Shown here in pieces: positions 38,172 to 64,000 of a DNA stretch of 64,000 nt (position 1 is its first letter; every line of letters starts with the position of its first letter). Source of the DNA: Candidatus Eiseniibacteriota bacterium. GTDB taxonomy: Bacteria > Arandabacterota > Arandabacteria > Arandabacterales > Arandabacteraceae. A program made the translations under genes and the position numbers. The stretch lies in NCBI GenBank assembly GCA_043810925.1, contig JBDRNT010000104.1:14242-78241 (forward strand), read 5' to 3'. Under the pieces are notes generated by a model, which saw nothing but the letters and a program-made list of their open reading frames with translations, did not search any database and was not told where the DNA came from.

Positions 38172-38173
38172 CT

Positions 38174-39715: not shown

Positions 39716-39718
39716 GAA

Positions 39719-44909: not shown

Positions 44910-45538
44910 TGCCGGAGGTCAAACCTGTTGTGAGGCTCGGAAAAGGCTGTGTAGTAGACGTGGGAGTCTTGCTGGGCTATCCCGCATCGCGCGGTGAGAA
45001 CATCGACACGGTTACGATCGGAGACGGCGCACGGATAAGGTCCGGTACTGTGATCTACGGCGGCGTCAAGGTGGGCGACAATCTCCAGACCGGTCACAAT
45101 GTCGTAATCCGCGAGGAGAACGAGATCGGTGATGGTCTGTCCATCTGGAATAATTCGGTCATCGACTACGGCTGTAAGATCGGAAACGGTGTCAAGATAC
45201 ACTGCAACTGCTATATAGCCCAATTCACGGTCATAGAGGATTGTGCCTTCCTTGCTCCAGGGGTGATGGTCACAAACGACTACCACCCGGGATGCAAGTT
45301 CTCTCTTGAGTGCATGCACGGGCCCCGGATAGGCAAACGGGCGCAAATCGGAGCCAACGTCACCATCATTCCCTTCATAGATATAGGCGAGCACTGTCTT
45401 GTCGGCGGTGGGAGCACGGTTACGAAGGATCTACCACCCTATTCACTGGCTTATGGCAATCCGGCGAAGGTGGTTGGCGATGTCAGGGACCTCACGTGTG
45501 CCACGGGGCGGACTGACAAGCCGTACGGGAAGCTATAG
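44906..45538 (+). CDS. hexapeptide-repeat acetyltransferase (WbpD-like sugar N-acetyltransferase)
   Basis: 210 aa, left-handed beta-helix repeats throughout. Overlaps the dehydrogenase gene by 4 nt. Confidence 0.78.
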   Translation: MMPEVKPVVRLGKGCVVDVGVLLGYPASRGENIDTVTIGDGARIRSGTVIYGGVKVGDNLQTGHNVVIREENEIGDGLSIWNNSVIDYGCKIGNGVKIHCNCYIAQFTVIEDCAFLAPGVMVTNDYHPGCKFSLECMHGPRIGKRAQIGANVTIIPFIDIGEHCLVGGGSTVTKDLPPYSLAYGNPAKVVGDVRDLTCATGRTDKPYGKL

Positions 45539-45552
45539 AAAGAGGATAGGCC

Positions 45553-49748: not shown

Positions 49749-49777
49749 GTAAGGAGAGTAGTGTGACCCCGGCCGGA

Positions 49778-50479
49778 TCAATCAAAAAGCCGGTACCTGA
49801 ACAGGTTCCAGAGGGCTGTAAACCCGTCCCGCCAGGTTATCTTCTTGCCCTCATGAAACTCCCTGCCTGCGTAGGAGATCGGGACCTCATATATCCTGTG
49901 TTTGCGTTTGAGCAGTTTCGCGGTTATCTCCACCTCGAACTCGAAGCGGTAGGATCTCAGCGGGATAGCCTTGACGATTTCGGACCGGAACATCTTGTAG
50001 CAGGTCTCCATATCCGATAGTGTGGTGTCGAACATGATGTTGGTTACAAGCGTAAGGAAGCGATTTCCCACCCAGTGCCAGAAATGCATGTTCTTGCGCT
50101 CACCCGTGAACCTGGATCCGTACACGATGTCGGCCTTACCGTCCTCGATGGGCTTTAAGAGTTTGAAGAAATCATTGGGATCGTACTCGAGGTCGGCATC
50201 CTGGATAACAACGACGTCTCCTGTAACGGAGGGAAGCGCGGCCCTTACGGCGGCTCCCTTGCCGAGGTTGGTCTCGTGGACAATGACCTTTGCCCGTTCG
50301 GGCGGAAAGCCGCTTAAAATCTCGCTCGATCCGTCGGTCGATCCGTCATCGACGATGATGATCTCCTTATCGATGGGGAGACGTTCGACCCGTGAGATGA
50401 TCTCATTCAGAGTGGCCTTTTCATTGTACACGGGTATTATTACCGAGAGGCGGAATTCGCTCCTGACCTGGCTGTCCAT
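49778..50479 (-). CDS. glycosyltransferase family 2 (DPM1/ALG5-like polyprenyl-phosphate glycosyltransferase type)
   Basis: LSVIIPVYNE, IIIVDDGSTDGS, VIQDADLEYDP. Start taken at ATG (50479-50477); upstream TTG 50515 is the ORF-track alternative. Second minus-strand gene in the window. Confidence 0.85.
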   Translation of the reverse strand: MDSQVRSEFRLSVIIPVYNEKATLNEIISRVERLPIDKEIIIVDDGSTDGSSEILSGFPPERAKVIVHETNLGKGAAVRAALPSVTGDVVVIQDADLEYDPNDFFKLLKPIEDGKADIVYGSRFTGERKNMHFWHWVGNRFLTLVTNIMFDTTLSDMETCYKMFRSEIVKAIPLRSYRFEFEVEITAKLLKRKHRIYEVPISYAGREFHEGKKITWRDGFTALWNLFRYRLFD

Positions 50480-50536
50480 GGTCTGGATTATGACCGTGGC
50501 GGGTGTGTGTGTCAACTCAATACGGTGGAGGAGAGA

Positions 50537-51793
50537 TTGGATAGACTTGGCTTCGTTCTAAGCTCCAGAGGCATCAGAAACTCCATCGCCCGGGCCTTTC
50601 AGGTGGCTACCCGGTTCGGCGTTACCGCGGCCAGAATGGAGAAGCAGCTCGGCGCATATGCCGACGTGGTGAGCCGCTACGGCGCGTGTCCGTCGCTGCC
50701 CATCACCGCTGCGGTTCTTGACAGGAACCCCCGGGTGGCGCGCGGCCTCGTTGATCGCGGGGTCGAGTTGTGTGTGCACGGTCTTGTCCATAACGACCTG
50801 TCGGAGCTCTCACCGCAAATGCAGAGGGACCAGATCGAACAGGCCATCGCGATATTCAAAAAACATGATATCCCGTTTCAAGGCTTCAGAAGCCCGTATC
50901 TGCGATACGACGGTGGGACCCTGAGTGCAGTCAGCGCACTGGAGTTCGAATACGACAGCAACATGCCGTTCTACTGGGAGCCCGGGAGCTTGCTTGAGGG
51001 TCTCGTCGCCTCAGAGAGCGATGGGCTTCGCAGGGGTCTTCGTTTCTACAACCCGGTAAAGTTCCCGGATGAACGGTCGCTTCCCAGACATATCGATCGG
51101 CTGGTTGAAATCCCCGTATCGCTTCCCGATGATGAGATCCTGCTCGACAGGATGGGCCTGCCGCCGGAGAAGATAGGGGATACGTGGGAGGAAATGGCAA
51201 GACTCGCACTCGACCGGGGCGAACTCCTGACGATCCAGCTTCACCCGGAGCGTATAGAGCTGCTCCGCGAAAGTCTCAGCCGCGTACTTGACTTCGCCGA
51301 GACCGATGGCGGGTTCTGGATCACGACCATGGCCAAGATCGCCTCATGGTGGAAGGAGCGGACACGGCTTGAGGTCGATGTCGCTCAGACAGGGCAGGGG
51401 AAATACCGGGTTCTGACTCCGCCCGGTATTAGGTCTCAACTCGAGATCGCCATTCCGGCGACGGGGGTGAGGGTAGGCATCACACCGGGAAGCGAAGTCG
51501 CTTCGCCGAAGAAACCCGTTATCGGGGTGCACCCGAAGACCGGTGATGATCTAAGACATAAGATTAGAGATATGGGGTATCTCATTGAAACTTCAGAGAA
51601 TAACGCGCTGTATGCATGTCACTTCGCTGGCCGTGACGGGCCGGACGAGATCGATAAACGCATACCAGATCTTGACCATCCTCTGCTTGTCGACACCTTC
51701 TGGCCGCGGCCGTTTAAGGCCGCACTGACTGTCACGGGCGATATCGACTGCCTGACACTGGGCGATTTCATCCGACGCTTCAGAGAGGGGTAG
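50537..51793 (+). CDS. polysaccharide deacetylase (CE4)-like protein with extra C-terminal domain
   Basis: GGAGG-N5-TTG start. CE4 motifs HGLVH (HxxxH) and FRSPYL (RxPY) are present, but the TFDD position reads VLSSRG. Confidence 0.7.
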   Translation: MDRLGFVLSSRGIRNSIARAFQVATRFGVTAARMEKQLGAYADVVSRYGACPSLPITAAVLDRNPRVARGLVDRGVELCVHGLVHNDLSELSPQMQRDQIEQAIAIFKKHDIPFQGFRSPYLRYDGGTLSAVSALEFEYDSNMPFYWEPGSLLEGLVASESDGLRRGLRFYNPVKFPDERSLPRHIDRLVEIPVSLPDDEILLDRMGLPPEKIGDTWEEMARLALDRGELLTIQLHPERIELLRESLSRVLDFAETDGGFWITTMAKIASWWKERTRLEVDVAQTGQGKYRVLTPPGIRSQLEIAIPATGVRVGITPGSEVASPKKPVIGVHPKTGDDLRHKIRDMGYLIETSENNALYACHFAGRDGPDEIDKRIPDLDHPLLVDTFWPRPFKAALTVTGDIDCLTLGDFIRRFREG

Positions 51794-51797
51794 ACCG

Positions 51798-53021
51798 TTG
51801 CGTATCTGTCTCGTGAACACCTACCACTACCGCCGTGGCGGGGATTCGACCTATACGTTCGATCTCGCCGGTCTGCTCGAGGCCAGGGGCCACGAGGTGG
51901 TCCACTTCGCGATGAGTCATCCCAGGAACATCAGATCCGAGTACGAGGCCAATTTCGTTGATGAGATCGATTACGGCCGGATCTTCCGGGCGGCGAACCC
52001 GTTTGCCAAGATGCGTGCGTTCTTACGCTCGCTTTACTCCTTTGAGGCCCGGGCGAAGTTCGGATCGTTTCTGGATAAGACCCGTCCGGACATCGTCCAC
52101 TTCCAGAACTTCCGGCGGCACCTGACTTTTTCGGTCGTTCAGGAAGCGAAGAAGAGGAACATCCCTGCGGTGTTCACAGCCCACGACTATGATCCCATCT
52201 GCCCGAATTCGCTGCTCTTCGCCGCCGGCAGCGTGTGTGAGGTGTGTCGCGGCACGGGCTACCACAAGGCGTTTGCGGTGAAGTGTAAGGAGCAATCCCT
52301 GCCGGGTACCCTGTCGGTCGTGCTTGAAGGCAGTTTCGTCAAGGTCAAGCATTACTATGATCTTTTCGATCTCATCATCACACCAAGTGAGTTCGCAAGA
52401 TCCAAACTCATCGAGTACGGCTTCGATGCGGGGTCGGTTGAGACCGTCCACAACTTTATCGACGCCAAAGCGTACGAACCCGCGTACGGCGGTGAAGGCG
52501 TGATCTATGTCGGCAGACTGGCTGCGGAGAAGGGGCTGGATACGCTCATAGAGGCGGCCGCAAGTCTCAAACACACCAGATTCATGATTGCGGGGGACGG
52601 CCCGCAGCGGCAGCATCTTGAGAACTTATGCGTGAAGTTGGGCTGCCGAAGTGTCGATTTCCTAGGATACGTGGAGAGGGATCAACTCCTGAAAATAGTG
52701 CGGCGGGCGATGTGCGTCGTCATGCCTTCTATATGGTTTGAGAACTTCCCGTATTCGATTCTGGAATCGTTTGCCCTGGGTACGCCCGTGGTCGCCTCAA
52801 ACATCGGGGGAATGCCCGAGAGCGTGAAGCATGAGAAGACCGGGCTGTTGTTTCCGCCGGGTGACGCGCTTGCCCTTTCGAAGCGGATCGAATACCTTCA
52901 GGAGAAGCCATCCCTGGCTGAGGAGATGGGAAGGACGGCCCGGACCCTGGTCGAAACACGGTTCGACCCGGAGACCCACTACCGCAAGATCAGTGAGGTC
53001 TACGGCAGGTTCGTGCATTAG
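51798..53021 (+). CDS. glycosyltransferase family 4 (type A2, paralog of 46533-47747)
   Basis: Same N-terminus pattern as A1 (MRICLVNTYHYRRGGDSTYTFDL). Identical Cys-X11-Cys-X2-Cys-X12-Cys spacing at 52200-52286. EX7E region SILESFALGTPVVASNIGGMPE. Confidence 0.85.
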   Translation: MRICLVNTYHYRRGGDSTYTFDLAGLLEARGHEVVHFAMSHPRNIRSEYEANFVDEIDYGRIFRAANPFAKMRAFLRSLYSFEARAKFGSFLDKTRPDIVHFQNFRRHLTFSVVQEAKKRNIPAVFTAHDYDPICPNSLLFAAGSVCEVCRGTGYHKAFAVKCKEQSLPGTLSVVLEGSFVKVKHYYDLFDLIITPSEFARSKLIEYGFDAGSVETVHNFIDAKAYEPAYGGEGVIYVGRLAAEKGLDTLIEAAASLKHTRFMIAGDGPQRQHLENLCVKLGCRSVDFLGYVERDQLLKIVRRAMCVVMPSIWFENFPYSILESFALGTPVVASNIGGMPESVKHEKTGLLFPPGDALALSKRIEYLQEKPSLAEEMGRTARTLVETRFDPETHYRKISEVYGRFVH

Positions 53022-53033
53022 AGAGCAGGGAAG

Positions 53034-54143
53034 ATGAAGATCGCGATGATTGGAATAAAAGGAGTGCCTGCCACCTGGGGAGGCATGGACAGAATAGTCG
53101 AGGCCATGGGCCAGGAACTGGTCAACAGGGGGCATGAGGTCACGGTCTATTGCAGGTCCTACTATGTGCCGGACGAAATCTCGGAGCATAAGGGGATCAA
53201 ACTGATCCGGACCCCTACGATCAACTCAAAGCACCTCGATGTCGCTGTTCACTCCTTTACTTCAGTTATGGACTGCCTCCGGCGGGATTTCGACATAATC
53301 CACTTCCATTCGATCCCACCGGCGATCTTCTGTGGGATTCCCCGTCTCTTCGGGAAGAAGACCATTGTGCAGGTGCATGGCCTGGGTTGGACGGACGTGA
53401 CCTGGGGACCCGTCGTCAGGTTCCTTATGAAAGCCTTTGAGTACCCGGCGATACACTGGTCCAATGCATTTGCCACGGTGTCGGAGCCGGCGGTCAAGTA
53501 CTTCGAGGAAACCTACGGCAAACGGGTGGAATATGTAACATCCACGACCGAGTTCCACGAGCCGAGGAAGCCTGATAAGATGAAGGAGCTCGGGCTGGAA
53601 AGGGATGGTTATATCCTCTTTGTCGCGAGACTCACACCACAGAAAGGACTCCATTATCTGCTTGAAGCCTTCAAGCATGTCAAGACCGACAAGAAACTCG
53701 TGATCGCCGGCGACGTCGATCCCGGTGACGGACTCGCCGATTACGTCGCCGACTTAAGAGCGATGGCCGACTCGAGAACGCAGTTCCTCGGCTGGGTCTA
53801 TGAGGACCTGCTTGATGAGCTCTACACCAACGCATTTCTCTTCGTGTTGCCCTCCGAAACCGAAGGGCTTTCGGTCTCACTTATAGAGGCAATCAATTTC
53901 GGATGCGGCGTGCTCGTGAGCGATATCCCCGAGAACCTCGATGCTCTCAAGGACTATGGATTCTCCTTTAAGAATATGGATGTTGCCGACCTGACAAGAA
54001 CACTCCAGCATCTGGTCGATAACCCGGCCCTCGTACTTGCCAAGAGAGACAAGGGACGCGAATACGTAAGACAGAGATACGGCATCGGCCCCGTGGTTGA
54101 CAGTCTCGAACGGGTCTACGGGCAGATGCTTAAGTCCAGGTGA
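53034..54143 (+). CDS. glycosyltransferase family 4 (type B2, paralog of 47744-48829)
   Basis: MKIAMIGIKGVPATWGGMDRIVE parallels B1. EX7E region SLIEAINFGCGVLVSDIPE. Confidence 0.85.
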   Translation: MKIAMIGIKGVPATWGGMDRIVEAMGQELVNRGHEVTVYCRSYYVPDEISEHKGIKLIRTPTINSKHLDVAVHSFTSVMDCLRRDFDIIHFHSIPPAIFCGIPRLFGKKTIVQVHGLGWTDVTWGPVVRFLMKAFEYPAIHWSNAFATVSEPAVKYFEETYGKRVEYVTSTTEFHEPRKPDKMKELGLERDGYILFVARLTPQKGLHYLLEAFKHVKTDKKLVIAGDVDPGDGLADYVADLRAMADSRTQFLGWVYEDLLDELYTNAFLFVLPSETEGLSVSLIEAINFGCGVLVSDIPENLDALKDYGFSFKNMDVADLTRTLQHLVDNPALVLAKRDKGREYVRQRYGIGPVVDSLERVYGQMLKSR

Positions 54144-54147
54144 GAAT

Positions 54148-55197
54148 ATGGGACATGTGAACCTGCTGCAGAGCACTGATGATGCAGCCCTAAGAGATCT
54201 GCTCAGGACCTCTGAGAAGGCGACAGTCTATCACACGCCCGAGTGGAGAGATGTTCTCATCTCCACATACGGTTACGAGCCTTTCTATATCGGCTACTTT
54301 GAAGATGACGTATTGACGGCGCTCCTGCCGGTGATGCTGGTCAGGAGCCGGCTTACGGGTACGAGGCTGGTGTCGCTGCCGTTCTCGAACACGTGCGGCC
54401 CCGTGGGGCGTGAGGACCACTTCGGGCAATTGCTTGAGAGAGCGCTGGAGCTGTACGAGGAGCAGGGGGCGACGGCGCTTGAGATCCGTACACAGACCGA
54501 TCTCAGCCGGGTGGGTGATGAGAGATTCAAGGGTCTGAGCTACTTTCTGACATCGGTCGTAGATCTCGACGAGGACCCCACCCGGGTGTGGAAGAGTTTT
54601 AAGGACCGGAACGTGAGGACCGAGGTGAGACAAGCGGAGAAGAAGGGCGTGGAAGTGCATGCGGCCGGCGATGAGAGCGATCTCAAGCGGTTCTATTCGC
54701 TGTTTGCCGCGACCAGGCTCGGGCACGGCGTACCCCCGGCACCTTACAAGTTTTTCCGGAACCTGTGGCGGCATCTCCGGACCGACAAACTGGATCTCTT
54801 TATGGCGACACACAAAGGCCGGACCGTCGGTGCCCTGATTACGCTCAACCTCGGAAAGACCTTGTCCGCCGCATACATCGGGTCCGATGTCGCATACAGG
54901 TCATACAGGGTCCACCAGATCCTCTTCTGGAGGGCCATGGAGATGGGTTGTTCCCGTGGACTCAAGATCTTTGACTTTCTCAGAACCCCTAAGTCAAGTG
55001 AGACCCTGCGCTATTTCAAGCAGCGATGGGGCGCCCGGGAGATCGATCTCGATTACCTCTATTATCCGGAGGTTCGCGGCACCGCGTCGACGGTGGAGGA
55101 TACGGCCAAGTATCGTCTGATGACCGCGGTTCTGAGGCGCTCACCCGTTCTATTCGGCAGACTGCTTGGCAGAGCGCTTTACAGGCATCTGGGATAA
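54148..55197 (+). CDS. FemAB-family / GNAT-fold acyl(aminoacyl)transferase-like protein
   Basis: Start ATG 54148. TVYHTPEWRDVL...LPVMLVRSRLTGTRLVSLPFSNTCGP and ...RYFKQRWGA are typical of EPS-locus FemAB-related proteins (from memory). Confidence 0.72.
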   Translation: MGHVNLLQSTDDAALRDLLRTSEKATVYHTPEWRDVLISTYGYEPFYIGYFEDDVLTALLPVMLVRSRLTGTRLVSLPFSNTCGPVGREDHFGQLLERALELYEEQGATALEIRTQTDLSRVGDERFKGLSYFLTSVVDLDEDPTRVWKSFKDRNVRTEVRQAEKKGVEVHAAGDESDLKRFYSLFAATRLGHGVPPAPYKFFRNLWRHLRTDKLDLFMATHKGRTVGALITLNLGKTLSAAYIGSDVAYRSYRVHQILFWRAMEMGCSRGLKIFDFLRTPKSSETLRYFKQRWGAREIDLDYLYYPEVRGTASTVEDTAKYRLMTAVLRRSPVLFGRLLGRALYRHLG

Positions 55198-55216
55198 GGG
55201 GTGGAGCATTTAGGTA

Positions 55217-55252
55217 TTGACATAGAGCCTTCCCGGTCACTTAAATAGTGAC
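55217..55252 (+). promoter_or_regulatory. candidate sigma70 promoter TTGACA-18-TTAAAT overlapped by palindrome GTCAC-N7-GTGAC
   Basis: -35 at 55217-55222 and -10 at 55241-55246. The inverted repeat at 55236-55252 spans the -10. Lies in the 83-nt gap upstream of the galT-like gene. Confidence 0.5.
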
Positions 55253-55280
55253 ACGGCTTTGACGAGGAGAAGTAAAGATT

Positions 55281-56294
55281 ATGCCCGAACTCAGGAAAGA
55301 TCCGATAATCGGCAGGTGGGTCATCATCTCGACCGAGAGAGGGAAGCGACCAACCGATTTCACCTCTGTTCCTCAGGCGAAATCCAGCAGTTTCTGCCCC
55401 TTCTGCGCAGGCAACGAATCCAAGACGCCCCCCGAGGTCTATGCCCTGAGGGAGCCCGGATCGCCAAAAGACGGGCCGGGATGGAAGGTGAGGGTGGTGT
55501 CGAACAAGTTCCCGGCACTCCAGATAGAAGGCGACCTCAACAGGCAGGGTGAGGGAATCTACGACAAGATGAACGGTGTGGGTGCGCACGAGGTTATCAT
55601 AGAGACCCCCGAGCACGACTTGACGCTCAGCGATCTGGATGAGGATCGCATATTTGATGTGCTCACGTGCTGGCAGCAACGGATAATCGATCTTAAGAAA
55701 GATGCGCGCTTCAAGTACATAGTCGTATTCAAGAACCACGGGGAGGCCGCAGGCGCTTCGCTCGAGCACACCCATACACAGCTGGTCGCCATGCCCATCA
55801 TACCTAAACGTGTGGTCGAGGAGATCGAAGGCGGCAGGAAGTACTATGAGTTCAAGGAACGCTGCATATTCTGTGACATTGTCTCGCAGGAGGTCAATGA
55901 GGACGTGAGGGTCGTGTCGGCGAACCAGACCTTTCTTGCGATTGAGCCGTTTGCGGCCAGATTCCCATTTGAGACCTGGATTCTGCCGAAGACGCATATG
56001 TCGGCCTACGAGGAGTTGGAACCGAACGGTGTCCGGCGCTTCGCGCGTATTCTCAAGGAGGTTCTTTTCAAGATCAACACTGCGCTCAACAGCCCGCCTT
56101 ATAACTTCATACTTCACACGCTGCCGCTTCAGGGAGATAACAGGGGCTGGTGCCACTGGCACCTCGAGATCATGCCAAAACTGACCAAGGTCGCCGGATT
56201 CGAATGGGGTTCGGGCTTCTACATAAACCCTACGGCTCCAGAGGAAGCAGCCAGATACCTGAGGGAAATCGCGGTAACAAGCAACAGGAAATGA
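55281..56294 (+). CDS. galT: galactose-1-phosphate uridylyltransferase-like (GalT/HIT-superfamily nucleotidyltransferase)
   Basis: 337 aa. Zn motif CPFCAGNE and the active-site HTHTQLVAMP (HxHxQ). Confidence 0.82.
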   Translation: MPELRKDPIIGRWVIISTERGKRPTDFTSVPQAKSSSFCPFCAGNESKTPPEVYALREPGSPKDGPGWKVRVVSNKFPALQIEGDLNRQGEGIYDKMNGVGAHEVIIETPEHDLTLSDLDEDRIFDVLTCWQQRIIDLKKDARFKYIVVFKNHGEAAGASLEHTHTQLVAMPIIPKRVVEEIEGGRKYYEFKERCIFCDIVSQEVNEDVRVVSANQTFLAIEPFAARFPFETWILPKTHMSAYEELEPNGVRRFARILKEVLFKINTALNSPPYNFILHTLPLQGDNRGWCHWHLEIMPKLTKVAGFEWGSGFYINPTAPEEAARYLREIAVTSNRK

Positions 56295-56297
56295 GGT

Positions 56298-57797
56298 TTG
56301 ACGATGGAAAGGAATCTATCTGTTTTGATGGTGTCGGCAGAGGCACATCCGCTGGCAAAGGTCGGTGGTCTTGCGGATGTAATGGGCGCACTGCCCAGAG
56401 CGCTGGCGAAACGCGGCCACAACGTCAGGATAGCGCTGCCCTTCTATAAGACCGTCAAAGACACGGGAATTTCCGTAAGCAGGCTTAAGGGAATCGACGT
56501 TCTCGACGTCACCATGGGAGATGTTGCGGTCCCTGCGGAGATCTGGGTGGGGAAGCTTCCCGGCAGCAAGATCGAGGTCTTGCTCATTGGAAACGATGAC
56601 TTCTTCGGAAGGGACGGGATCTATACGGACCCGAAGACGGGTGAGGCATACAACGATAACGCCGAGCGCTTCATATTCTTCTCACGGGCTGTTTTCCAGC
56701 TGATCAATTTCCTGAAACGCCGTCCGAACCTGATCCACTGTCACGATCACCAGACGGGATTCATCCCTGCCTGGATAAGATACGCGCCCGGACAGGCCGG
56801 TCTCCCGGAGGATCTCAGGACGGTCTTTACAATTCACAACCTCGCCTACCAGGGCTCCTATCCCAAGGAAGTCGGGTACAAGGCAGGCTTCGGGGAGGAC
56901 GTCTTGAAGCCCATGGGTGCCGTAGAGTTTCACGGCGAGGTGAACCTGATGAAGGCCGGTATAAGCTTCGCTGATACCATAACCACCGTCAGCCCGACCT
57001 ACGGCAAGGAGATTCAGACCGCCGAGTTCGGTTACGGGCTTGAAGGTATCCTCAAAGCCAGGTCGGAGCACCTCTTCGGTATCTTAAACGGAGCCGATTA
57101 CAGTGTCTGGGACCCCGACAGTGACAAACTGATACCGCACACATACAATCGCAGTAAACCAGAGGGCAAACGCAAGTGCCGCCAGCATCTCATCGAGCGG
57201 TTCGCTCTTGATACCGGCGAGGAAACGCCGCTTATCGGTATTGTGTCAAGACTTGTCGCACAGAAGGGTTTCGACATCCTGAGCGAGGTCTTCGATAAGA
57301 TCATGGCCCTCGACACGGGCATCGTGATTCTCGGTCTTGGGGACAAGCACTATCATGACCTGCTGACCGCGGCCGCGAAGCGCTTTCCGGGGAAGGTATC
57401 GGTCAACCTCGATTTCAATGAGGAGCTGGCACACCAGATCGAGGCGGGATGTGACATGTTCTTGATGCCGTCCAAGTATGAACCCTGCGGTCTTAACCAG
57501 ATGTACAGCATGAAATACGGCACCGTGCCCATAGTCAGGAAGACCGGAGGCCTTGCGGACACCGTAATCGACTTCGATGCGTCCGATGAATCGACGGGAT
57601 TCGTATTCGACGAGTACACCTCCGGCGCGCTGCTCGAGGCGGTCCGCCGGGCCCGCCAGGTTTTTGCCGACCGGGCACAGTGGGACCGGCTTGTGGACAG
57701 GGCTATGGCACAGGACTTCTCGTGGGAGCGGTCTGCAGAGAGCTACGAAGACGTCTACCGGGCGACCATGAGAAGAAGGGTGGTGACTGCGAGTTAG
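56298..57797 (+). CDS. glgA: glycogen/starch synthase (GT5)
   Basis: 499 aa. N-terminal AEAHPLAKVGGLADVMGALP (KxGGL motif), HCHDHQTG, and the C-terminal PSKYEPCGLNQMY. Confidence 0.9.
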   Translation: MTMERNLSVLMVSAEAHPLAKVGGLADVMGALPRALAKRGHNVRIALPFYKTVKDTGISVSRLKGIDVLDVTMGDVAVPAEIWVGKLPGSKIEVLLIGNDDFFGRDGIYTDPKTGEAYNDNAERFIFFSRAVFQLINFLKRRPNLIHCHDHQTGFIPAWIRYAPGQAGLPEDLRTVFTIHNLAYQGSYPKEVGYKAGFGEDVLKPMGAVEFHGEVNLMKAGISFADTITTVSPTYGKEIQTAEFGYGLEGILKARSEHLFGILNGADYSVWDPDSDKLIPHTYNRSKPEGKRKCRQHLIERFALDTGEETPLIGIVSRLVAQKGFDILSEVFDKIMALDTGIVILGLGDKHYHDLLTAAAKRFPGKVSVNLDFNEELAHQIEAGCDMFLMPSKYEPCGLNQMYSMKYGTVPIVRKTGGLADTVIDFDASDESTGFVFDEYTSGALLEAVRRARQVFADRAQWDRLVDRAMAQDFSWERSAESYEDVYRATMRRRVVTAS

Positions 57798-58536
57798 CTA
57801 CGACCTCGTTTCAGTCGTTATCCCCGCCTACAATGAGGAAAGCAGGATCGGAGAGTCCCTCGGCAAGATCAAGACTTACCTCGAGGGGGGGGACTTCGAT
57901 TTCGAGATCATCGTCGTGGATGACGGGAGCCGGGACGGGACCTCCCGCATAGTGACTGATGCGGCCTCAGCGGACTCCCGTATCAGACTGCTCAGAAACG
58001 AAAGCAACAAGGGTAAGGGCTACTCGGTGAGACGGGGCGTGCTGGAATCGGCCGGTGACCTCGTCCTTTTCTCCGACGCCGATCTTTCAACACCCATTGA
58101 CGAGTTGGACGGTCTTCTCAGGTCAGTCGGTGACTTCGATATCGTGATCGCATCCAGAAGCCTTCCCGATTCGCAGGTGGTTATCCACCAGCCGTTTTAC
58201 AGGGAGTTCATGGGAAAGATCTTCAACCTCTTCGTACAGATGATGCTCGTCCGGGGGATAATAGACACCCAGTGCGGGTTTAAACTCATGACAAGAAAAG
58301 CCGCGGATACCGTATTCAGATCGGCGAGGATCGACTCATTCAGTTTCGATGTCGAGATGATCCTGATTGCCAGGAGGTGCGGGTTGGGCGTGAAGGACAT
58401 GCCCGTGAGGTGGATCGACTCGCGGGCGTCCAAGGTTCATCCGGTACGTGATTCGGCCCATATGCTTCTTGACCTGTTCCGGATAAAGCTATATGATATT
58501 TTAGGTCTTTACAAAAGACAGGTCGAGCGGGAATAG
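57787..58536 (+). CDS. glycosyltransferase family 2 (DPM1/ALG5-like), apparent non-canonical CTG start
   Basis: Conserved N-terminus LVSVVIPAYNEE...IIVVDDGSRDGT lies upstream of the first ATG (57916). The only in-frame start-like codon after stop 57784-57786 is CTG 57787. Also carries the DADL motif. Confidence 0.78.
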   Translation: MRVSYDLVSVVIPAYNEESRIGESLGKIKTYLEGGDFDFEIIVVDDGSRDGTSRIVTDAASADSRIRLLRNESNKGKGYSVRRGVLESAGDLVLFSDADLSTPIDELDGLLRSVGDFDIVIASRSLPDSQVVIHQPFYREFMGKIFNLFVQMMLVRGIIDTQCGFKLMTRKAADTVFRSARIDSFSFDVEMILIARRCGLGVKDMPVRWIDSRASKVHPVRDSAHMLLDLFRIKLYDILGLYKRQVERE

Positions 58537-58601
58537 CTCAGTGGTAGAGCGCCACCTTGCCAAGGTGGATGTCGCGGGTTCAAATCCCGTTTCCCGCTCC
58601 A
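58527..58601 (+). tRNA. tRNA-Gly (anticodon GCC)
   Basis: Cloverleaf read by hand: acceptor GCGGGAA/TTCCCGC, D arm GCTC-AGTGGTA-GAGC, anticodon arm CCACC-TTGCCAA-GGTGG, T arm GCGGG-TTCAAAT-CCCGT, encoded CCA. Its 5' end overlaps the GT2 stop by 10 nt. Confidence 0.92.
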
Positions 58602-58829
58602 TTTTTCTATACACCCCTCGGGGTCAGGTCTTGCCCTCGGGGTTCCATCCCCGAAGGTCCCCTCGCCGGGACCGCAGACCCGGTACTACAGGGAAACACA
58701 AGGTTGGCGAAAGGGCTGGATTGACCGCAACCTGTGTTATATATTCTGACTGGGTGTGGTTTCGCTGCTAAGTGTCTGTGTGTACTGTACCGATTTATAT
58801 ATAGATAAGCTGATTGAGGAGGTACCGGC

Positions 58830-60152
58830 TTGAAAAAGGTGTACGTGGCACTGAGCGCGGATTTTATCCATCCGGGGCATTTGAATGTGATCGATACGGC
58901 CCGAAAACTCGGTGAGCTCACAATCGGGCTTCTGACCGACAAGGCGATAGCAAGCTATAAGAACCTCCCGATGCTCAGTTATGATCAGCGCAGGGTGGTC
59001 GTAGAGAACCTCAAGGGTGTTGCCCGGGTCGTCCCACAGGACACGCTCGATTACACCGGGAATCTGAAAGAGCTTCGTCCCGACTTCGTGGTTCACGGTA
59101 CCGACTGGCAGACGGGTCCTCAAAAGCACGCACGAGAGCGTGTGATCGAGGTTCTGAAGGAGTGGGGAGGGGAACTGGTTGAGCCTGCATACAGCGAGGG
59201 TTTCTCCGCGCGTGATATGAACAGGTATGTCTCCGGTGTCTCGACGACCGGCGAACTTCGCAGGGCGAGGCTGCGCCGCCTGATCGATGCCTGCCCGGTT
59301 GTCCGCATCCTCGAGGTCCACAATGGTCTTTCTGCGCTCATAGCGGAGAAAACCGAGATCGAGCAGGATGGAGTCACCCGGAGCTTTCATGGCATGTGGA
59401 TCAGCAGCCTGACCGACTCGACCGCAAAGGGTAAGCCTGATATCGAACTTGTCGATCTCACCTCACGCCTCAATACGATACATGATGTGCTTGAGGTCAC
59501 AACGAAGCCCGTGATTCTTGACGGCGACACGGGGGGACAGCCCGAGCATTTCTACTTCATGGTCAAGACGCTTGAACGGCTCGGGGTATCCGCGGTTATA
59601 ATCGAGGATAAGAAGGGGCTCAAGAAGAACTCGCTCTTCGGTACCGACGTTGCGCAGACCCAGTGCTCCATCGAGGAGTTTTCCGAGAAGATAAAGATCG
59701 GGAGACAGGCCCGTGCGACGGACGATTTCATGATTGTTGCCAGGATAGAGAGCCTTATCCTCAAGGCGGGCCTTGAGGATGCGCTGGCCAGGGCGCTGGC
59801 ATACACCGAGGCCGGGGCCGACGCCATAATGATTCACAGCAAACAGCCGGAGCCGGATGAAATCCTCGAGTTCTGTGCCGGCTACCGGGACTCCAAGAGG
59901 AGAGTCCCGCTGGTCGTGGTCCCCACAACCTACAATTCGATCACCGAGGAAGAGCTTGCAGATGCCGGTGTCAGCGTGGTCATTTACGCCAACCACATGC
60001 TGAGGAGCGCATATCCATCAATGCTCAGATCGGCGCAGGTGATTCTGAAGCACCATAGATCCCTCGAGACCGACCAATACTGCATGCCGATCAAAGAGAT
60101 CCTGACACTGATACCGGATGGCACCGAGGGGCGTGGTGACCCACGGGCATAG
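58830..60152 (+). CDS. pepM: bifunctional cytidylyltransferase-like domain / phosphoenolpyruvate mutase (Fom1-like architecture)
   Basis: GAGGAGG-N7-TTG start. The N-terminal ~130 aa carry HxGH (FIHPGH, 58869-58880) and VHGTDW, as in TagD-type cytidylyltransferases. The C-terminal domain has the PepM-diagnostic EDKX5NS ([10 protein letters not shown], 59604-59633). Confidence 0.88.
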
Positions 60153-60160
60153 GAGAAAAC

Positions 60161-61279
60161 ATGATCGGCCCAGATGAATTCTACCAGGCTCTGCTTGACC
60201 GGGAGATTGACTTCTTCACCGGGGTTCCCGACTCACTCCTGAAGAACTTCTGTGCATATATACAGGATGCTGTGGCAGGAGGCAGCAACATCATCGCCGC
60301 CAACGAGGGAGGAGCAATAGCTCTTGCTGCCGGCCACTACCTGGCGTCCGGTAAACCGGCGCTGGTGTATCTTCAGAACTCAGGCATAGGCAACGCTATA
60401 AATCCGCTGATCTCGCTGTGCGATCCAGCGGTCTACAGTATTCCGGTCTTGCTTCTCATAGGCTGGCGCGGCGAGCCGGGTGTAAAGGATGAGCCGCAGC
60501 ATGTCAGGCAGGGCGAGATTACTCCCGGTCTCCTGGACACGCTCGGTATCGGCTATTCCATCGTTACCGGAGATACCGACATCGGGGAGGTCCTGGATCT
60601 TGCCGTATCCGAGATGAAGGCCAGGGAGATGCCCTATGCCGTCGTGGTGAGGAAGGGGTCCTTTGAGCCCTATACCTTGAAGAACGCGACGGCCTGTGAG
60701 GCCACGATGGAGCGGGAAAGCGCCATAAAGATCGCGGCTTCACGCATAGGCCCGGATGCGGTGATCGTCTCCACAACGGGTAAGATCTCGCGTGAGCTCT
60801 ATGAGTATCGTGTCGGCGAGGGTCTTTCGATCGATCGCGACTTTCTTACCGTCGGCTCGATGGGACACTGCTCACAGATTGCGGCGGGTATAGCAATAAC
60901 CAGGAGCGATAAACAGGTATACTGCTTCGATGGGGACGGGGCGGTGATAATGCACATGGGAAGCCTTTGCATAAACGCCTCGCTGGGTCTGAAGAACTTC
61001 AGGCATATCGTCTTCAATAACGCCTGTCATGATTCGGTGGGCGGACAGCCGACTGCCGGTGATGTTGTGGACTTCACCGGTGTGGCACTCGCCTGTGGCT
61101 ACAGGACGGTTCTGCGAGCTGAAACCGAGGACGAGCTGAACGAGGCTCTTGGCAGGCTGATCGACGCCGATGGGCCTGCACTGCTTGAGATCAGGGTGAA
61201 GAAGGGTGCGAGGGGTGATCTCGGCCGGCCAAAGGCCACCCCTGTGGAGATGAAGAAGAAGTTCATGGCAGCGTTATGA
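60161..61279 (+). CDS. ppd: phosphonopyruvate decarboxylase (ThDP-dependent)
   Basis: 372 aa. ThDP-binding motif GDGAVIMHMGSLCINASLGLKNFRHIVFNN. Size and position immediately after pepM are typical. Confidence 0.87.
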   Translation: MIGPDEFYQALLDREIDFFTGVPDSLLKNFCAYIQDAVAGGSNIIAANEGGAIALAAGHYLASGKPALVYLQNSGIGNAINPLISLCDPAVYSIPVLLLIGWRGEPGVKDEPQHVRQGEITPGLLDTLGIGYSIVTGDTDIGEVLDLAVSEMKAREMPYAVVVRKGSFEPYTLKNATACEATMERESAIKIAASRIGPDAVIVSTTGKISRELYEYRVGEGLSIDRDFLTVGSMGHCSQIAAGIAITRSDKQVYCFDGDGAVIMHMGSLCINASLGLKNFRHIVFNNACHDSVGGQPTAGDVVDFTGVALACGYRTVLRAETEDELNEALGRLIDADGPALLEIRVKKGARGDLGRPKATPVEMKKKFMAAL

Positions 61280-61989
61280 AAGCAGTGATTCTTAACTCCG
61301 GAACCGGCTCCCGGATGGGAGACCTGACACGGTCCAGACCCAAGTGCCTTGTTGATCTTTCAACCGGCGAGACCATCCTGTCAAGACAGATCGGCCAGAT
61401 CAGAAGCTGCGGCATCACGGATTTCATCATAACGACAGGGCCGTTTGAGCACATGATCGAAGAGTATGTGAACGCGACTTTTCCAGGTGTCACCGTGAGT
61501 TACATCCACAACCCGGATTACAGGGAAACCAACTACATAGTCTCGATGCACCTGGCCGGCGGACTGCTAAGGGATGAGATCCTTCTCCTCCACGGGGATA
61601 TCGTGACCACGGAAGATATGGTGAGGGACGTCATCGAATTTGCAGAGCCCAATGCGGCCGTCATAGACTCCACCGCGGGGCTACCGGCGGATGATTTTAA
61701 GGCCCGGCTGGTAGATGGGCTGATAACGGAGATCGGGGTGGATGTCGCCGGTTCCCACTGCGTGGCCTTGCTTCCCGTATACAGCCTCTCACGAGACTTC
61801 ATGAATGTCTGGATGGATGAGATCGCTCTGCTTGTCGAGGCCGGTGAGCTCGGTGTTTACGCCGAAGAGGCGTTCAACAGGAGATCGGCCGATCTGCCGC
61901 TGAGTCCGGTCGATTGCGCCCGGAGACTTTGCATGGAAGTCGACACGCCTGAGGATCTCGAAAAGGCAATGAAGTCGATCGGACTGTGA
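61276..61989 (+). CDS. LicC/PntC-like nucleotidyltransferase
   Basis: 237 aa. N-terminal MKAVILNSGTGSRMG...PKCLV (GxGxR NTP-transferase motif). ATGA overlap with ppd. Confidence 0.78.
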   Translation: MKAVILNSGTGSRMGDLTRSRPKCLVDLSTGETILSRQIGQIRSCGITDFIITTGPFEHMIEEYVNATFPGVTVSYIHNPDYRETNYIVSMHLAGGLLRDEILLLHGDIVTTEDMVRDVIEFAEPNAAVIDSTAGLPADDFKARLVDGLITEIGVDVAGSHCVALLPVYSLSRDFMNVWMDEIALLVEAGELGVYAEEAFNRRSADLPLSPVDCARRLCMEVDTPEDLEKAMKSIGL

Positions 61990-61993
61990 CAGT

Positions 61994-63127
61994 ATGAAAC
62001 AAGTTGAAATGGAAGGTTGGGGAAGTCTCGGTGAGTTGCCCGGTGTGCTTGAGAGCATCGGGGCAAAGAAGATCTTCCTCGTCACGGGGAAAACCTCTTA
62101 TGCCGGCAGCGGTGCCCGGAAAATCCTGGACGAACTCCTCCATCCATACGTTGTCACGAGGTTCTGTGATTTCAGCGCGGAACGTGATCCCGATGAGATC
62201 GCCAGGGGTGCGGAGCTCCTGAGAAGCATCGAGTTTGATGCGGTCGTCGCTGTAGGTGGTGGTACGGTCATCGACACGGCCAAGCTGATCTCTATTCTGA
62301 CCGCAAACAAGGGTGATGTCAGGAAGTACATCAAGCGAGATCTGCCGCTTGAAAGCAAAGGGCTGCCGCTTGTGGCCGTGCCGACCACGGCGGGCTCCGG
62401 CAGTGAAAGCACTCACTTTGCAGTGGTCTACATGGACAAGATAAAATACTCCGTGGCTCATGAATACATGTTGCCGGATTACTGCATAGTCGATCCGTCC
62501 CTGACGATGACCCTTCCGGCTGATGTGACGGCCTCAACCGGGCTGGATGCTCTGGCCCAGGCCGTTGAGTCATACTGGTCCATAAACTCGACCGCTGAAT
62601 CAAGAGGCTACTCAAGAAGGGCCCTCGAACTGGCCGCCGGGCACCTTAGGAGCGCCGCCACGAGGCCGGACAAGAAGTCACGCCAGGCGATGGCGGAGGC
62701 ATCTCACCTTTCCGGTAAGGCCATAAACATCGCCAAGACAACGGTCGCCCACGCTGTATCCTATTACTTCACGGCCCATCACAACGTTCCGCACGGTCAT
62801 GCGGTAGCGCTCACACTCGGCAGCTTCATAAGGTTTAACAGCATGGTCGGCGCCGAAGATGTGGCCGACGAACGCGGTCTCGACCACGTCAAAGGCTGTA
62901 TCGGTGAAATCCTGAGGATTCTCGGTGCCGAAAGCGGTGATGAGGGCGCCGGTGTGATTGAGAATCTTATGCAGGAATTGGGCCTTGAGACCGACATCGG
63001 GAAGTTGGGTCTGAGTGGAAAGGAGGAGGTCGATCGTCTTGTAGGCAGTATCAACGTCGAGCGTCTGAAGAACAACCCGCGGAAGATTGAACCGCAGGAC
63101 ATCCCCGGGATAATTGGCGCACGATGA
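61994..63127 (+). CDS. group III iron-containing alcohol dehydrogenase (phosphonoacetaldehyde reductase candidate, PhpC/FomC-like)
   Basis: 377 aa. Motifs AVGGGTVIDTAK, VAVPTTAGSGSE and the His cluster HAVSYYFTAHHNVPHGHAVAL. Confidence 0.8.
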   Translation: MKQVEMEGWGSLGELPGVLESIGAKKIFLVTGKTSYAGSGARKILDELLHPYVVTRFCDFSAERDPDEIARGAELLRSIEFDAVVAVGGGTVIDTAKLISILTANKGDVRKYIKRDLPLESKGLPLVAVPTTAGSGSESTHFAVVYMDKIKYSVAHEYMLPDYCIVDPSLTMTLPADVTASTGLDALAQAVESYWSINSTAESRGYSRRALELAAGHLRSAATRPDKKSRQAMAEASHLSGKAINIAKTTVAHAVSYYFTAHHNVPHGHAVALTLGSFIRFNSMVGAEDVADERGLDHVKGCIGEILRILGAESGDEGAGVIENLMQELGLETDIGKLGLSGKEEVDRLVGSINVERLKNNPRKIEPQDIPGIIGAR

Positions 63128-63156
63128 GGTGGTGCTCTGACTGAGATCGGCCGGGC

Positions 63157-63948
63157 ATGGGAGTGATGAGGGAGTTTCTCAAAGGAATCGGACCGCTCAG
63201 GCGGTCTGTCAGACGATCCAAGAGGTTTACGAAGGCCCTCGGATACAGGCTGCACAGAGTCGTCAATGTCTTCGATCCCCAGCGACGAACCGAATGCACA
63301 CGCAACACCACGCGATGCGGGGATGACATTCACAGCGCCCATTACGGTTACTGGTATCTGGGAGAGAACACACCCGTGTGCTGCACGAGCAATCTCGTCG
63401 GGGTATTTTTCTGGCTGGTCGACATCCTCGACGCAAACGAGATACCGTATTTCATTCTCTGGGGTACCCACTTGGGAGCCGTCAGGCACAAGGGCCTGAT
63501 CCCGTGGGATTTCGATATCGATATCGGTATTGAGGCCACGCATGAGCGCAAGTTGATGGACCTGATAGGAGAGAGAGGCCAGGAAAAAGGGTATCACATA
63601 GTAAGAGATGACGACTATGTGATAAGGATAGCCTATAGCAGGATGAACCGCCAGCACGTGGATATCGAACTCTGGTACGATGATGACATGGCCGACGGAA
63701 GTCTCTTCACGCACACTTTCTATGGCAGGATCAGCATACCCCGTAGCGAGGTCTATCCTCTTGCGGCCTACACCTTCCATGGCAGGACCGTGACAGGGCC
63801 GAAGGAAGACACCTACCTGAGGAAGATCTTCGGGGACACCATATATACGCACGGGTACCGGAGTTCGGATCTGACGGATGACAGCGAGTTTCCCTTAAAC
63901 AACCCCGAACCCGCTCGGATAAGAGAATCTGACTTGACCTCGCCGTGA
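63157..63948 (+). CDS. LicD family phospho(no)-headgroup transferase
   Basis: 263 aa. LicD core YFILWGTHLGAVRHKGLIPWDFDIDIGI. Cys-rich ~85-aa N-terminal extension. Confidence 0.8.
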   Translation: MGVMREFLKGIGPLRRSVRRSKRFTKALGYRLHRVVNVFDPQRRTECTRNTTRCGDDIHSAHYGYWYLGENTPVCCTSNLVGVFFWLVDILDANEIPYFILWGTHLGAVRHKGLIPWDFDIDIGIEATHERKLMDLIGERGQEKGYHIVRDDDYVIRIAYSRMNRQHVDIELWYDDDMADGSLFTHTFYGRISIPRSEVYPLAAYTFHGRTVTGPKEDTYLRKIFGDTIYTHGYRSSDLTDDSEFPLNNPEPARIRESDLTSP

Positions 63949-64000
63949 CAACACGGTATCATAGAAAGTGATCATTGTTTTGACCCTGAGTGTGGCGGCA

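Follow-up and report, generated by a model that had tools for sequence, protein, structure and literature searches.

A cassette of five co-directional genes was analyzed at positions 58830-63948 (+) of a 64,000-nucleotide (nt) stretch of contig JBDRNT010000104.1 from a Candidatus Eiseniibacteriota bacterium; this whole stretch of 64 kb is called the window below. With a probability of roughly 0.7, the cassette is a self-contained phosphonyl-tailoring module of the 2-hydroxyethylphosphonate (2-HEP, or HEP) branch, predicted from its genes to make 2-HEP, to activate it with cytidine monophosphate (CMP) and to attach it to a glycan. The original prediction for this DNA had claimed CMP-2-HEP synthesis and glycan transfer, and this claim held in every in-silico test that was run. 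The genes encode, in order, a fusion of a cytidylyltransferase (CyTase) with a phosphoenolpyruvate (PEP) mutase (PepM, or Ppm), a phosphonopyruvate decarboxylase (Ppd), a stand-alone nucleotidyltransferase (NTase), an iron-dependent alcohol dehydrogenase (Fe-ADH, or ADH) and LicD. They were identified by an open reading frame (ORF) check with Pfam and NCBIfam. Related loci on other contigs are referred to by number (L001 and so on). The features of the cassette and its borders are as follows (aa, amino acid).

58527..58601, +, tRNA-Gly(GCC), upstream cassette boundary (ARAGORN; also found before the cassettes of L001, L035 and L037)
58733..58754, +, AT-rich leader element TGTGTTATATATTCTGACTGGG, possible promoter (kept in the tRNA-to-pepM spacers)
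58816..58822, +, Shine-Dalgarno sequence GAGGAGG, 7 nt before the TTG start (read from the sequence; conserved in four relatives)
58830-60152, +, CyTase-PepM fusion protein, 440 aa, TTG start (PF01467 + PF13714)
58830..59225, +, Fom1-type CyTase domain (aa 1-132), predicted CTP:2-HEP cytidylyltransferase (PF01467 CTP_transf_like at aa 11-101; 5X3D match)
59262..60152, +, PEP mutase domain (aa ~145-440; PF13714 PEP_mutase at aa 149-405; TIGR02320)
60161..61279, +, thiamine diphosphate (ThDP)-dependent Ppd, phosphonopyruvate to phosphonoacetaldehyde (TIGR03297, PF02776, PF02775)
61276..61989, +, NTP_transf_3 (LicC/PntC-like) NTase of an ADH-linked 'HGD' subfamily, predicted second HEP cytidylyltransferase (PF12804, PF00483)
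61994..63127, +, PhpC/FomC-like group III (Fe/Zn) ADH, predicted to convert phosphonoacetaldehyde to 2-HEP (PF00465 at 138 bits; PF25137)
63157..63948, +, FKRP-type LicD, 263 aa, predicted HEP-phosphonyl transferase to a glycan hydroxyl (PF04991)
63994..64000, +, first 7 nt of tRNA-Cys(GCA), downstream boundary (window tail aligned to L001; synteny only)

In the proposed route, the PepM domain would isomerise PEP to phosphonopyruvate, Ppd would decarboxylate it irreversibly to phosphonoacetaldehyde, and the PhpC-like ADH would convert this aldehyde to 2-HEP. The Fom1-type domain and/or the stand-alone NTase, a His-type PntC-like enzyme, would then convert HEP to CMP-HEP. A soluble or peripheral FKRP-type LicD would move the HEP-phosphonyl group from CMP-HEP to a glycan hydroxyl, with release of CMP. 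The most likely acceptor would be the undecaprenyl-diphosphate (Und-PP)-linked repeat unit of the neighbouring Wzy-dependent polysaccharide, on the cytoplasmic face. A Wzx flippase (encoded downstream in relatives) would then flip this unit across the membrane for Wzy to polymerise and Wza to export. On the evidence of the genes, HEP formation is very probable, CMP activation is highly likely, LicD-mediated transfer to a glycan is likely, and the specific acceptor named here is somewhat favoured.

Enzymes of the cassette

The PepM domain of the fusion protein scored 407.8 bits against TIGR02320 (cut-off 319.55), carries EDKX5NS at aa 259-268 and matched the PEP mutases 5UNC and 1M1B of the PDB with E values of 1e-40 to 1e-46. 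The EDKX5NS motif separates Ppm from its isocitrate-lyase relatives. Ppd scored 471 bits against TIGR03297 (cut-off 312.5) and contains both ThDP-binding domains (PF02776 and PF02775). Both proteins lie above their NCBIfam equivalog cut-offs, in agreement with the commitment to phosphonates that had been claimed. The motifs HPGH (aa 14-17) and VHGTDW (aa 88-93), which had been claimed for the fusion protein together with EDKX5NS, were likewise located.

The N-terminal CyTase domain (aa 4-132) matched PDB entry 5X3D with an E value of 2.2e-54 and 66% identity. We take 5X3D to be the Fom1 CyTase domain of Cho et al. 2017. The entry is labelled 'phosphoenolpyruvate phosphomutase' (160 aa) in the PDB and aligns to the N-terminal domain alone; a literature search for the code 5X3D found nothing. 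The CyTase of Fom1 forms CMP-HEP, as Cho 2017 is cited in PMC6697681. The domain in the window has the features of the Fom1 type, namely PF01467, the HPGH form of the HxGH motif, N-terminal fusion to PepM and similarity to 5X3D.

The CyTase domains were also compared according to whether their loci contain an ADH or a 2-aminoethylphosphonate (AEP) transaminase (AEPT). Identity to Fom1 (5X3D) averaged 64% in the ADH context versus 52% in the AEPT context (Mann-Whitney p = 3e-4, for sequences that are not phylogenetically independent). In a neighbour-joining tree, Fom1 fell within the ADH-context clade, and six of the seven AEPT-context domains fell outside it. The domain is predicted to catalyse CTP + 2-HEP to CMP-HEP + pyrophosphate. 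CMP activation by the N-terminal domain, as originally proposed, is supported indirectly in silico by the 5X3D match and the placement beside Fom1. Homologs carry the JGI label 'PEP phosphomutase / 2-HEP cytidylyltransferase'.

A single alignment column, at fusion aa 74 (nt ~59049-59051), separated the ADH/Fom1-context CyTase domains from the AEPT-context domains. It holds Asp (TLDY) in 19 of 21 sequences of the former and Ser in 6 of 7 of the latter, and it is a candidate position for HEP/AEP specificity.

The best NCBIfam model for the ADH was the phosphonate-linked Fe-ADH model TIGR03405, and its best PDB match was the sulfoacetaldehyde reductase 6JKO/6JKP. Piazza et al. 2026 (PMC13576164) used this Bifidobacterium enzyme as their structural reference for PhpC. 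Four residues past the first His ligand, PhpC strictly conserves a Tyr (Tyr264), and sulfoacetaldehyde reductase has Phe there (PMC13576164). In the window ADH, Tyr257 (HAVSY) aligns with the Phe of 6JKO (HACSF), and the ligands Asp185, His253 and His267 are present. Tyr occupies this position in all 120 top ADH homologs and also in the ADHs of L022 and L041. Lys151 aligns to the 6JKO residue that corresponds to PhpC Lys157 if the numbering is shifted by one residue, as assumed here. The C-terminal NNP motif (ERLKNNPRK) has Arg and Lys on either side, with equivalence to PhpC Arg349 not fixed. The ADH class was assigned by the Tyr264 criterion and NCBI homolog names; the name on homologs of 46-49% identity is 'phosphonoacetaldehyde reductase'. 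The ADH occurs next to Ppd across phyla, in bacteria and archaea. Among 38 CyTase-PepM loci, a Fe-ADH follows Ppd in 21 and an AEPT is present in 8, and no locus contains both.

A catabolic role of the ADH (HEP oxidation, PMC13576164) was rejected. There is no PhnX, PhnY-PhnA or transporter, and the gene lies between Ppd and the biosynthetic transferases.

The stand-alone NTase contains the family signature GXG(T/S)RX4-8PK as GTGSR (aa 9-13) and RPK (aa 21-23). In the characterised enzyme Tde-PntC, Glu104 and Glu196 contact the amine of AEP (PMC6697681). The window NTase has His106 (LLLHGD) in place of the amine-contacting Glu104; the region of Glu196 (YAEE) is ambiguous by one alignment column. 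The alignment was anchored by L018, whose PntC-AEPT fusion matches Tde-PntC 6PD1 at E 1.5e-69. All 10 ADH-linked NTases have His (LLHGD), all 5 AEPT-linked NTases have Glu (LLLESD), and HGD was found in 108 of the 120 top NTase homologs. Moreover, L022 (10373-12202) encodes a continuous 609-aa NTase-Fe-ADH fusion that mirrors the known PntC-AEPT fusions; no mention of an NTase-ADH fusion was found in the published papers searched. The His-for-Glu exchange in ADH-linked NTases and the fusion in L022 tie the NTase to HEP, the product of the ADH, which is its predicted substrate. By sequence, the enzyme appears to work like PntC yet to stand outside the AEP-specific group. JGI labels on its homologs were a PEP-mutase KO (the PntC domain is fused to Ppm elsewhere), 'choline kinase' (LicC-type) and Cj1416-like.

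LicD scored 55.6 bits against PF04991 (cut-off 22.6), with the Pfam match covering aa 93-153 only. In a phmmer search, aa 45-217 matched the catalytic domain of human FKRP (6KAJ) at E 1.2e-15. LicD has exactly four Cys (47, 54, 75 and 76), and their 7/21/1 spacing equals that of the FKRP zinc ligands Cys289/296/317/318. Arg53 aligns with FKRP Arg295, DFDID (118-122) with Asp360/362/364, and Asp169 with Asp416. The protein therefore combines the marks of the LicD family and of an FKRP-type subgroup (PF04991, catalytic Asp, four-Cys loop and Arg), and the FKRP stem domain is absent. FKRP belongs to the phosphotransferases that use cytidine diphosphate (CDP)-alcohols. Its Arg295 binds the phosphate of the acceptor's ribitol phosphate, and the zinc-finger loop has been stated to be conserved only in FKRP orthologues (PMC6965139). 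The relation to FKRP is based on sequence alignment, and a single-sequence AlphaFold2 model (mean predicted local distance difference test score, pLDDT, 34) was left unused. No strongly hydrophobic segment was found in LicD, which fits an action on the cytoplasmic face.

Among 1.84 billion representatives searched exhaustively, only 206 LicD homologs reached E <= 1e-10. The Cys4 pattern was present in 70 of the top 150 matches; 50 of these 70 are short (~250 aa) stand-alone proteins, and 50 of the 70 have Arg directly before the second Cys. Prokaryote-type contigs were confirmed for LicD of the window, L001 and L035 and for four sampled loop-bearing members. The FKRP-type features are kept in the LicD proteins of L001 (14332-15129) and L035 (14460-15251) and are absent from the ordinary LicD of L011. 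Judging from the gene contexts sampled, the FKRP-type LicD is often, not always, linked to phosphonate genes.

Glycan context, acceptor and alternative products

The following features of the window bear on the acceptor.

35162..58536, +, Wzy-dependent polysaccharide locus, likely acceptor pathway (Pfam scans)
9828-12224, BamA (Pfam)

The polysaccharide locus encodes Wza, Wzz, a BY-kinase-like ATPase, a PMT_2 glycosyltransferase (GT), Wzy, DegT, a Bac_transf initiating transferase and an oxidoreductase. It also holds genes for acetyltransferases, a radical S-adenosylmethionine (SAM)-SPASM protein, seven further GTs (five GT4 and two GT2) and a deacetylase, as well as a GalT-like gene and GlgA. 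The phosphoglycosyltransferase (PGT), Wzy_C, Wzz and Poly_export matches all lie at 35-44 kb. A diderm lineage with a large adjacent glycan locus had been proposed, and BamA, the lipid A genes and the Wza/Wzz/Wzy/PGT/GT locus were indeed found. No Wzx flippase was found in the 64-kb window; in relatives one is seen downstream of licD, where the window ends, and by this synteny it would be the flippase that the polysaccharide locus needs.

In every informative context (L001, L035, L039, L040, L041 and L043), LicD adjoins Wzx or lies within three genes of it. L039 has the order Wzz, CyTase-PepM, Ppd, Fe-ADH, LicD, Wzx, LicD, EpsG, with an FKRP-type LicD at 4601-5377 of 35% identity. L041 has the order Fe-ADH, Wzx, LicD. 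The capsule locus L043 lacks phosphonate genes and contains dTDP-rhamnose, TagF-like and Stealth genes; its LicD, too, is next to Wzx.

The same chemistry could lead to CMP-HEP with a different acceptor, be it the core or the lipid A of lipopolysaccharide (LPS), a glycolipid or a glycoprotein; this is unlikely. The window contains a full lipid A/core set, with LpxD, an LpxC-FabZ fusion, LpxA, LpxB, KdtA, LpxK, an MsbA-like ABC transporter and two GT9 heptosyltransferases. In addition, the sole NCBIfam match of LicD is Mf1, a LicD-family enzyme acting on a glycolipid, and glycogen genes and tRNAs lie between the cassette and the glycan genes, with the cassette moving relative to the tRNA pair. 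However, the proximity of LicD to Wzx in the six loci above points to an Und-PP-linked oligosaccharide, and the cassette of L039 sits between Wzz and Wzx/EpsG.

Although this is doubtful, the FKRP-type LicD may add more than a single terminal HEP. It could join HEP units in tandem or into a polymer, a poly(2-hydroxyethylphosphonate) resembling teichoic acid, or place HEP on a sugar that is already phosph(on)orylated. HEP is bifunctional, with a hydroxyl and a phosphonate, like glycerol phosphate or ribitol phosphate, whereas AEP is not, and FKRP adds a second ribitol phosphate onto the first. The idea follows from these two properties and from the retention of FKRP Arg295 as Arg53. It is also based on the pairs of TagF-like transferases in L013, L014 and L032 and on the two LicD genes of L039. 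For such a polymer, the two NTases could supply donors for priming and extension.

It is improbable that HEP is only an intermediate, which MpnS, HEPD, a hydroxylase or a methyltransferase encoded elsewhere would convert to, for example, methylphosphonate or 1,2-dihydroxyethylphosphonate, to be attached or released. HEP does lead to methylphosphonate and several natural products (PMC8931226, PMC8942020), relatives of the L030 type couple the same core to B12 radical-SAM enzymes, and some 22 kb of the 86,636-bp source contig, like the remainder of the genome, lie outside the region covered. Nevertheless, no converting gene occurs in the conserved neighbourhood of the window, L001 and L035, where no B12 radical-SAM enzyme, HppE-type epoxidase or other phosphonate-tailoring gene was found in the cassette or in the 10-kb flanks of L001 and L035. 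The cassette is also tRNA-bounded and conserved as exactly five genes, and a Fom1-type domain with LicD would complete an activation-and-transfer logic alone. A non-antibiotic route had been proposed for the cassette, and this agrees with the lack of a Fom3-like or tailoring gene in the conserved neighbourhood; the one radical-SAM protein of the window is SPASM-type without a B12 domain. Because the relative L030 has a B12 radical-SAM gene directly after its ADH, the lack of a Fom3-like enzyme here is a real difference.

A product of AEP, formed by an unlinked AEP transaminase with the ADH as an accessory or salvage enzyme, is very improbable. AEP is the commonest product type, at 56% of ppm neighbourhoods (PMC8942020), and PF01467-Ppm fusions also occur in AEPT clusters, both among the loci compared here and in PMC8942020. 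On the other hand, tblastn found no AEPT in the 64-kb window or within 10 kb on each side of the cassette in L001 and L035 (best E 0.2-0.6); the queries were proteins from L012 and L016, that of L016 being one verified Aminotran_5. Together with the mutual exclusion of ADH and AEPT among the CyTase-PepM loci, this bears out the claimed absence of an AEP transaminase and favours HEP over AEP. The stand-alone NTase lacks the amine-contacting Glu104, and the CyTase domain clusters with Fom1 and the sequences of the ADH context.

The sole aminotransferase near the cassette is a DegT-type sugar aminotransferase. This gene (41109-42320) was considered as an AEPT and rejected, since its 389-bit DegT match versus a weak Aminotran_5 match marks a sugar aminotransferase.

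Least probable is a separate teichoic-acid-type CDP-alcohol pathway of NTase, ADH and LicD merely beside PepM and Ppd: TarI/TarJ-type pairs of reductase and cytidylyltransferase with LicD-family transferases exist, FKRP uses CDP-ribitol (PMC6965139) and L043 has an FKRP-type LicD without phosphonate genes, but the ADH, with its PhpC Tyr, falls into the PhpC/sulfoacetaldehyde-reductase type and not among sugar-phosphate reductases, it follows Ppd in more than 20 loci across phyla, and PepM and Ppd alone would leave reactive phosphonoacetaldehyde without a consumer. The ADH was also considered as a glycerol-1-phosphate dehydrogenase or polyol-phosphate reductase, and this was rejected because that match reached just 33 bits versus 192 bits.

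Several observations weigh against the HEP-glycan module as proposed. The lineage is an uncultured one of metagenome-assembled genomes (MAGs), and the cassette is known here from genes alone. The ADH scored 192.3 bits, under the TIGR03405 cut-off of 423.7, and Gln189 (DALAQ) takes the place of the second metal ligand. Sulfoacetaldehyde reductase likewise has Gln there and PhpC of P. fungorum has His; at least 100 of the 120 ADH homologs share the Gln. Because of the score and the Gln in place of His, the window ADH is placed in a sister clade of the characterised PhpC enzymes on sequence grounds. The NTase is only weakly similar to characterised PntC (6PD1) and LicC (~30 bits), and two NTases for one product lack an explanation. 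Two-NTase clusters, even triple fusions, have been recorded without explanation (Rice et al. 2019, PMC6697681), and L039 has a HEP core with an FKRP-type LicD and no second NTase. The occurrence of an FKRP-type LicD without phosphonate genes in L043 means that the family does not fix the donor of LicD. Between the cassette and the core glycan genes lie the GalT-like gene, GlgA, a GT2 gene and tRNA genes. Because of these intervening genes and of the shift of the cassette relative to the tRNA pair among relatives, its link to the neighbouring polysaccharide is circumstantial. Finally, the negative results on AEPT and tailoring genes cover the 64-kb window and the relatives, with the 22 kb of the source contig mentioned above outside them.

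Boundaries, relatives and modularity of the cassette

All five ORFs were found on the plus strand where they had been reported, and profile hidden Markov model searches with Pfam and NCBIfam recovered the predicted family for each gene. The claimed tRNA-Gly was identified by ARAGORN, and its gap to the first gene is 228 nt as described. The genes had been described as separated by 28 nt or less, or by an ATGA overlap. This was correct for the first three junctions (8 nt, a 4-nt ATGA overlap and 4 nt), and the last gap is 29 nt, a trivial difference. The window does end 52 nt past licD, as claimed. However, the suggestion that the cassette may continue was not supported: it ends at licD, with tRNA-Cys beginning ~45 nt past it, as placed by synteny with L001. 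Therefore, the cassette is a discrete five-gene module ending at licD and bracketed by tRNA-Gly and tRNA-Cys.

The leader element TGTGTTATATATTCTGACTGGG is conserved in the window, L001 and L037 and more loosely in L035, within surrounding spacers that are divergent. It may be a promoter or regulatory site for the cassette. A sigma-70 consensus scan did not call the element at 58733-58754, and a scan of the 228-nt leader and the cassette interior for sigma-70 promoters and intrinsic terminators gave nothing interpretable. The TTG start at 58830 is supported by the GAGGAGG conserved upstream of it.

The same five genes in the same order were found on three further contigs (L001, L035 and L036), with 80-93% identity of the fusion protein; the recurrence of this order in three contigs argues that the arrangement is not due to chance. 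Sequence beyond the window was read from the syntenic relatives L001 and L035. L001 (MAG 'bacterium M3-30_Bin_374') is collinear with window positions 48766-64000 at ~84% nucleotide identity. There, tRNA-Cys(GCA) (15152-15227, ARAGORN) lies 22 nt after licD, and a Wzx/MOP flippase of 489 aa lies 346 nt after licD, with unrelated genes beyond. In L035, whose fusion protein is 80% identical to that of the window, tRNA-Gly and tRNA-Cys (9737-9812) are adjacent and both upstream of the cassette. Downstream of the L035 cassette are a deacetylase and a CapK-like gene on the opposite strand and then a Wzx flippase, three genes downstream. From this comparison, the five-gene block appears to have moved as a unit relative to the conserved tRNA-Gly/tRNA-Cys pair, which shows modular rearrangement and gives no sign of recent transfer.

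A recently acquired, tRNA-flanked island was considered and rejected. GC content is flat at 0.55-0.58 over 30-64 kb, with no flanking direct repeats and no integrase.

The four-gene core also occurs in Spirochaetales, Thermoplasmatales and other lineages, and cassette relatives as a whole span Spirochaetales, Bacteroidales, Cloacimonadota, WOR-3, Marinimicrobia and DPANN/Thermoplasmatales archaea. The HEP core is accompanied by LicD in the window clade, L011 and L039, and by paired TagF-like CDP-alcohol phosphotransferases in L013, L014 and L032. The presence of these TagF-like transferases beside other HEP cores is consistent with a nucleotide-activated donor. In L003 and L010, the core is accompanied by sulfatase or alkaline-phosphatase-superfamily enzymes, and in L030 (a Pseudomonadales MAG) a B12-binding radical-SAM gene directly follows CyTase-PepM, Ppd and ADH.

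L030 contains two radical-SAM paralogs (9865-11235 and 12967-14493), which flank a GT2 gene; B12 binding was confirmed for the first. By their domains and setting, they might carry out a Fom3-type methylation of CMP-HEP in a glycan, not antibiotic, context, with a hydroxypropylphosphonate decoration as the product.

Related systems and further features of the window

The early fosfomycin pathway (Streptomyces wedmorensis Fom1, Fom2 and FomC) agrees with the route proposed for the cassette in its first four chemical steps, and it shares the N-terminal PF01467-PepM fusion. A Fe-ADH follows Ppd in both, and the window CyTase has the 66% identity to 5X3D given above. Unlike the fosfomycin pathway, the window has no Fom3, FomD or Fom4/HppE, and it has LicD, an extra PntC-like NTase and a glycan-export context. 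For these reasons, CMP-HEP would be a donor here and not a transient intermediate as in fosfomycin biosynthesis.

The Pnt pathway for AEP glycans (PMC6697681; Treponema denticola, Atopobium rimae and Bacteroides fragilis) shares the Ppm-NTase fusion, a LicD-like transferase, a second NTase of LicC-like type at a distance of one or two genes, a surface-glycan context and Lic-modelled cytidylyl activation. It differs in that AEPT leads to AEP there, whereas a Fe-ADH would lead to HEP in the window. Glu104 of its NTase is His106 in the window enzyme, and its PntC-AEPT fusion has a counterpart in the NTase-ADH fusion of the relative L022. The PF01467 fusion was found in 23.6% of Ppm proteins and NTases in two-thirds of Ppm clusters, with LicD-like transferases accompanying them, by Rice et al. 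2019 (PMC6697681), who proposed a Lic-like 'Pnt' logic.

The Streptococcus pneumoniae Lic pathway (LicC, LicD1/2 and TacF) likewise has an NTP_transf_3 cytidylyltransferase, a LicD-family transferase and an adjacent gene for a dedicated MOP-family flippase. Its decoration takes place on the cytoplasmic face before flipping, and the same is proposed for the window cassette. There, the phosphocholine headgroup is supplied by uptake and phosphorylation through LicB and LicA, whereas the window cassette would make its phosphonate de novo and has no kinase or transporter. Human FKRP (6KAJ, PMC6965139) has a LicD-type catalytic domain whose zinc Cys, Arg295 and catalytic Asp are all matched by the window LicD. 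FKRP is 495 aa long with a stem domain and signal anchor and uses CDP-ribitol, whereas the window LicD, of 263 aa, lacks both and has CMP-HEP as its presumed donor.

The predicted product, 2-HEP esterified to a polysaccharide, is of a class that exists in nature: PMC8942020 and PMC13576164 cite Yu et al. 2014 for phosphonoglycans with HEP from Glycomyces sp. and Stackebrandtia nassauensis. Only two actinomycetes are known to have yielded isolated HEP-glycans. They are monoderm, and the window cassette belongs to an LPS-producing diderm MAG lineage; they are likened to it by product, not by gene clusters. HEP esters also occur in marine dissolved organic matter polysaccharide. The original prediction had implied that the HEP route is unusual, and it proved to be less so than implied. 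Li and Horsman 2022 (PMC8942020) class 8.5% of ppm neighbourhoods as PhpC/HEP-type and note that HEP-polysaccharides have already been isolated, including a HEP conjugate of the exopolysaccharide of Stackebrandtia. According to PMC13576164, HEP compounds are probably plentiful enough to sustain dedicated catabolic pathways in at least eight phyla.

The cassette thus represents a recognised yet experimentally little-studied pathway type, and no current view is overturned. Published work already covers the HEP branch, fusions of Ppm with a cytidylyltransferase, clusters with two NTases and HEP-glycans. In the searchable literature, CMP-HEP was found in the fosfomycin context only, and no characterised enzyme that attaches HEP to a glycan is described. 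Three points seem to be undescribed in the literature searched, namely a His-type PntC-like subfamily with an NTase-ADH fusion in one relative, an FKRP-type zinc-loop LicD with its flippase pairing, and the modularity of a tRNA-bounded cassette. As a compact tRNA-bounded unit of five genes, the cassette is suited to an expression test of the whole route from PEP to glycan-bound HEP. Useful handles are the His-for-Glu signature for telling HEP-linked from AEP-linked PntC-like enzymes, the NTase-ADH fusion as a Rosetta stone, and a bacterial FKRP-type LicD with a zinc-finger loop. If confirmed, these handles would improve the annotation of widespread surface modifications and provide a bacterial model for FKRP-type catalysis.

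Further features were observed elsewhere in the window. The LpxC-FabZ fusion (450 aa, 13826-15178) lies inside a compact cluster of BamA, LpxD, LpxC/FabZ, LpxA, LpxB, KdtA and LpxK. Such a fusion is typical of some FCB-group and related lineages, and it may help to place the lineage. The radical SAM-SPASM protein without a B12 domain is encoded at 45553-46536 among glycosyltransferase genes. The GalT-like (GalP_UDP_transf/DUF4921) and GlgA genes (55281-57797) lie between the surface-glycan genes and the cassette, an odd spot for storage-glycan genes; this arrangement is conserved in L001, L035 and L037. A Memo-AMMECR1 fusion (534 aa, 22828-24432) is found beside a 758-aa protein with a spermine/spermidine-synthase domain, encoded on the opposite (-) strand at 24380-26656; neither has a relation to the cassette.

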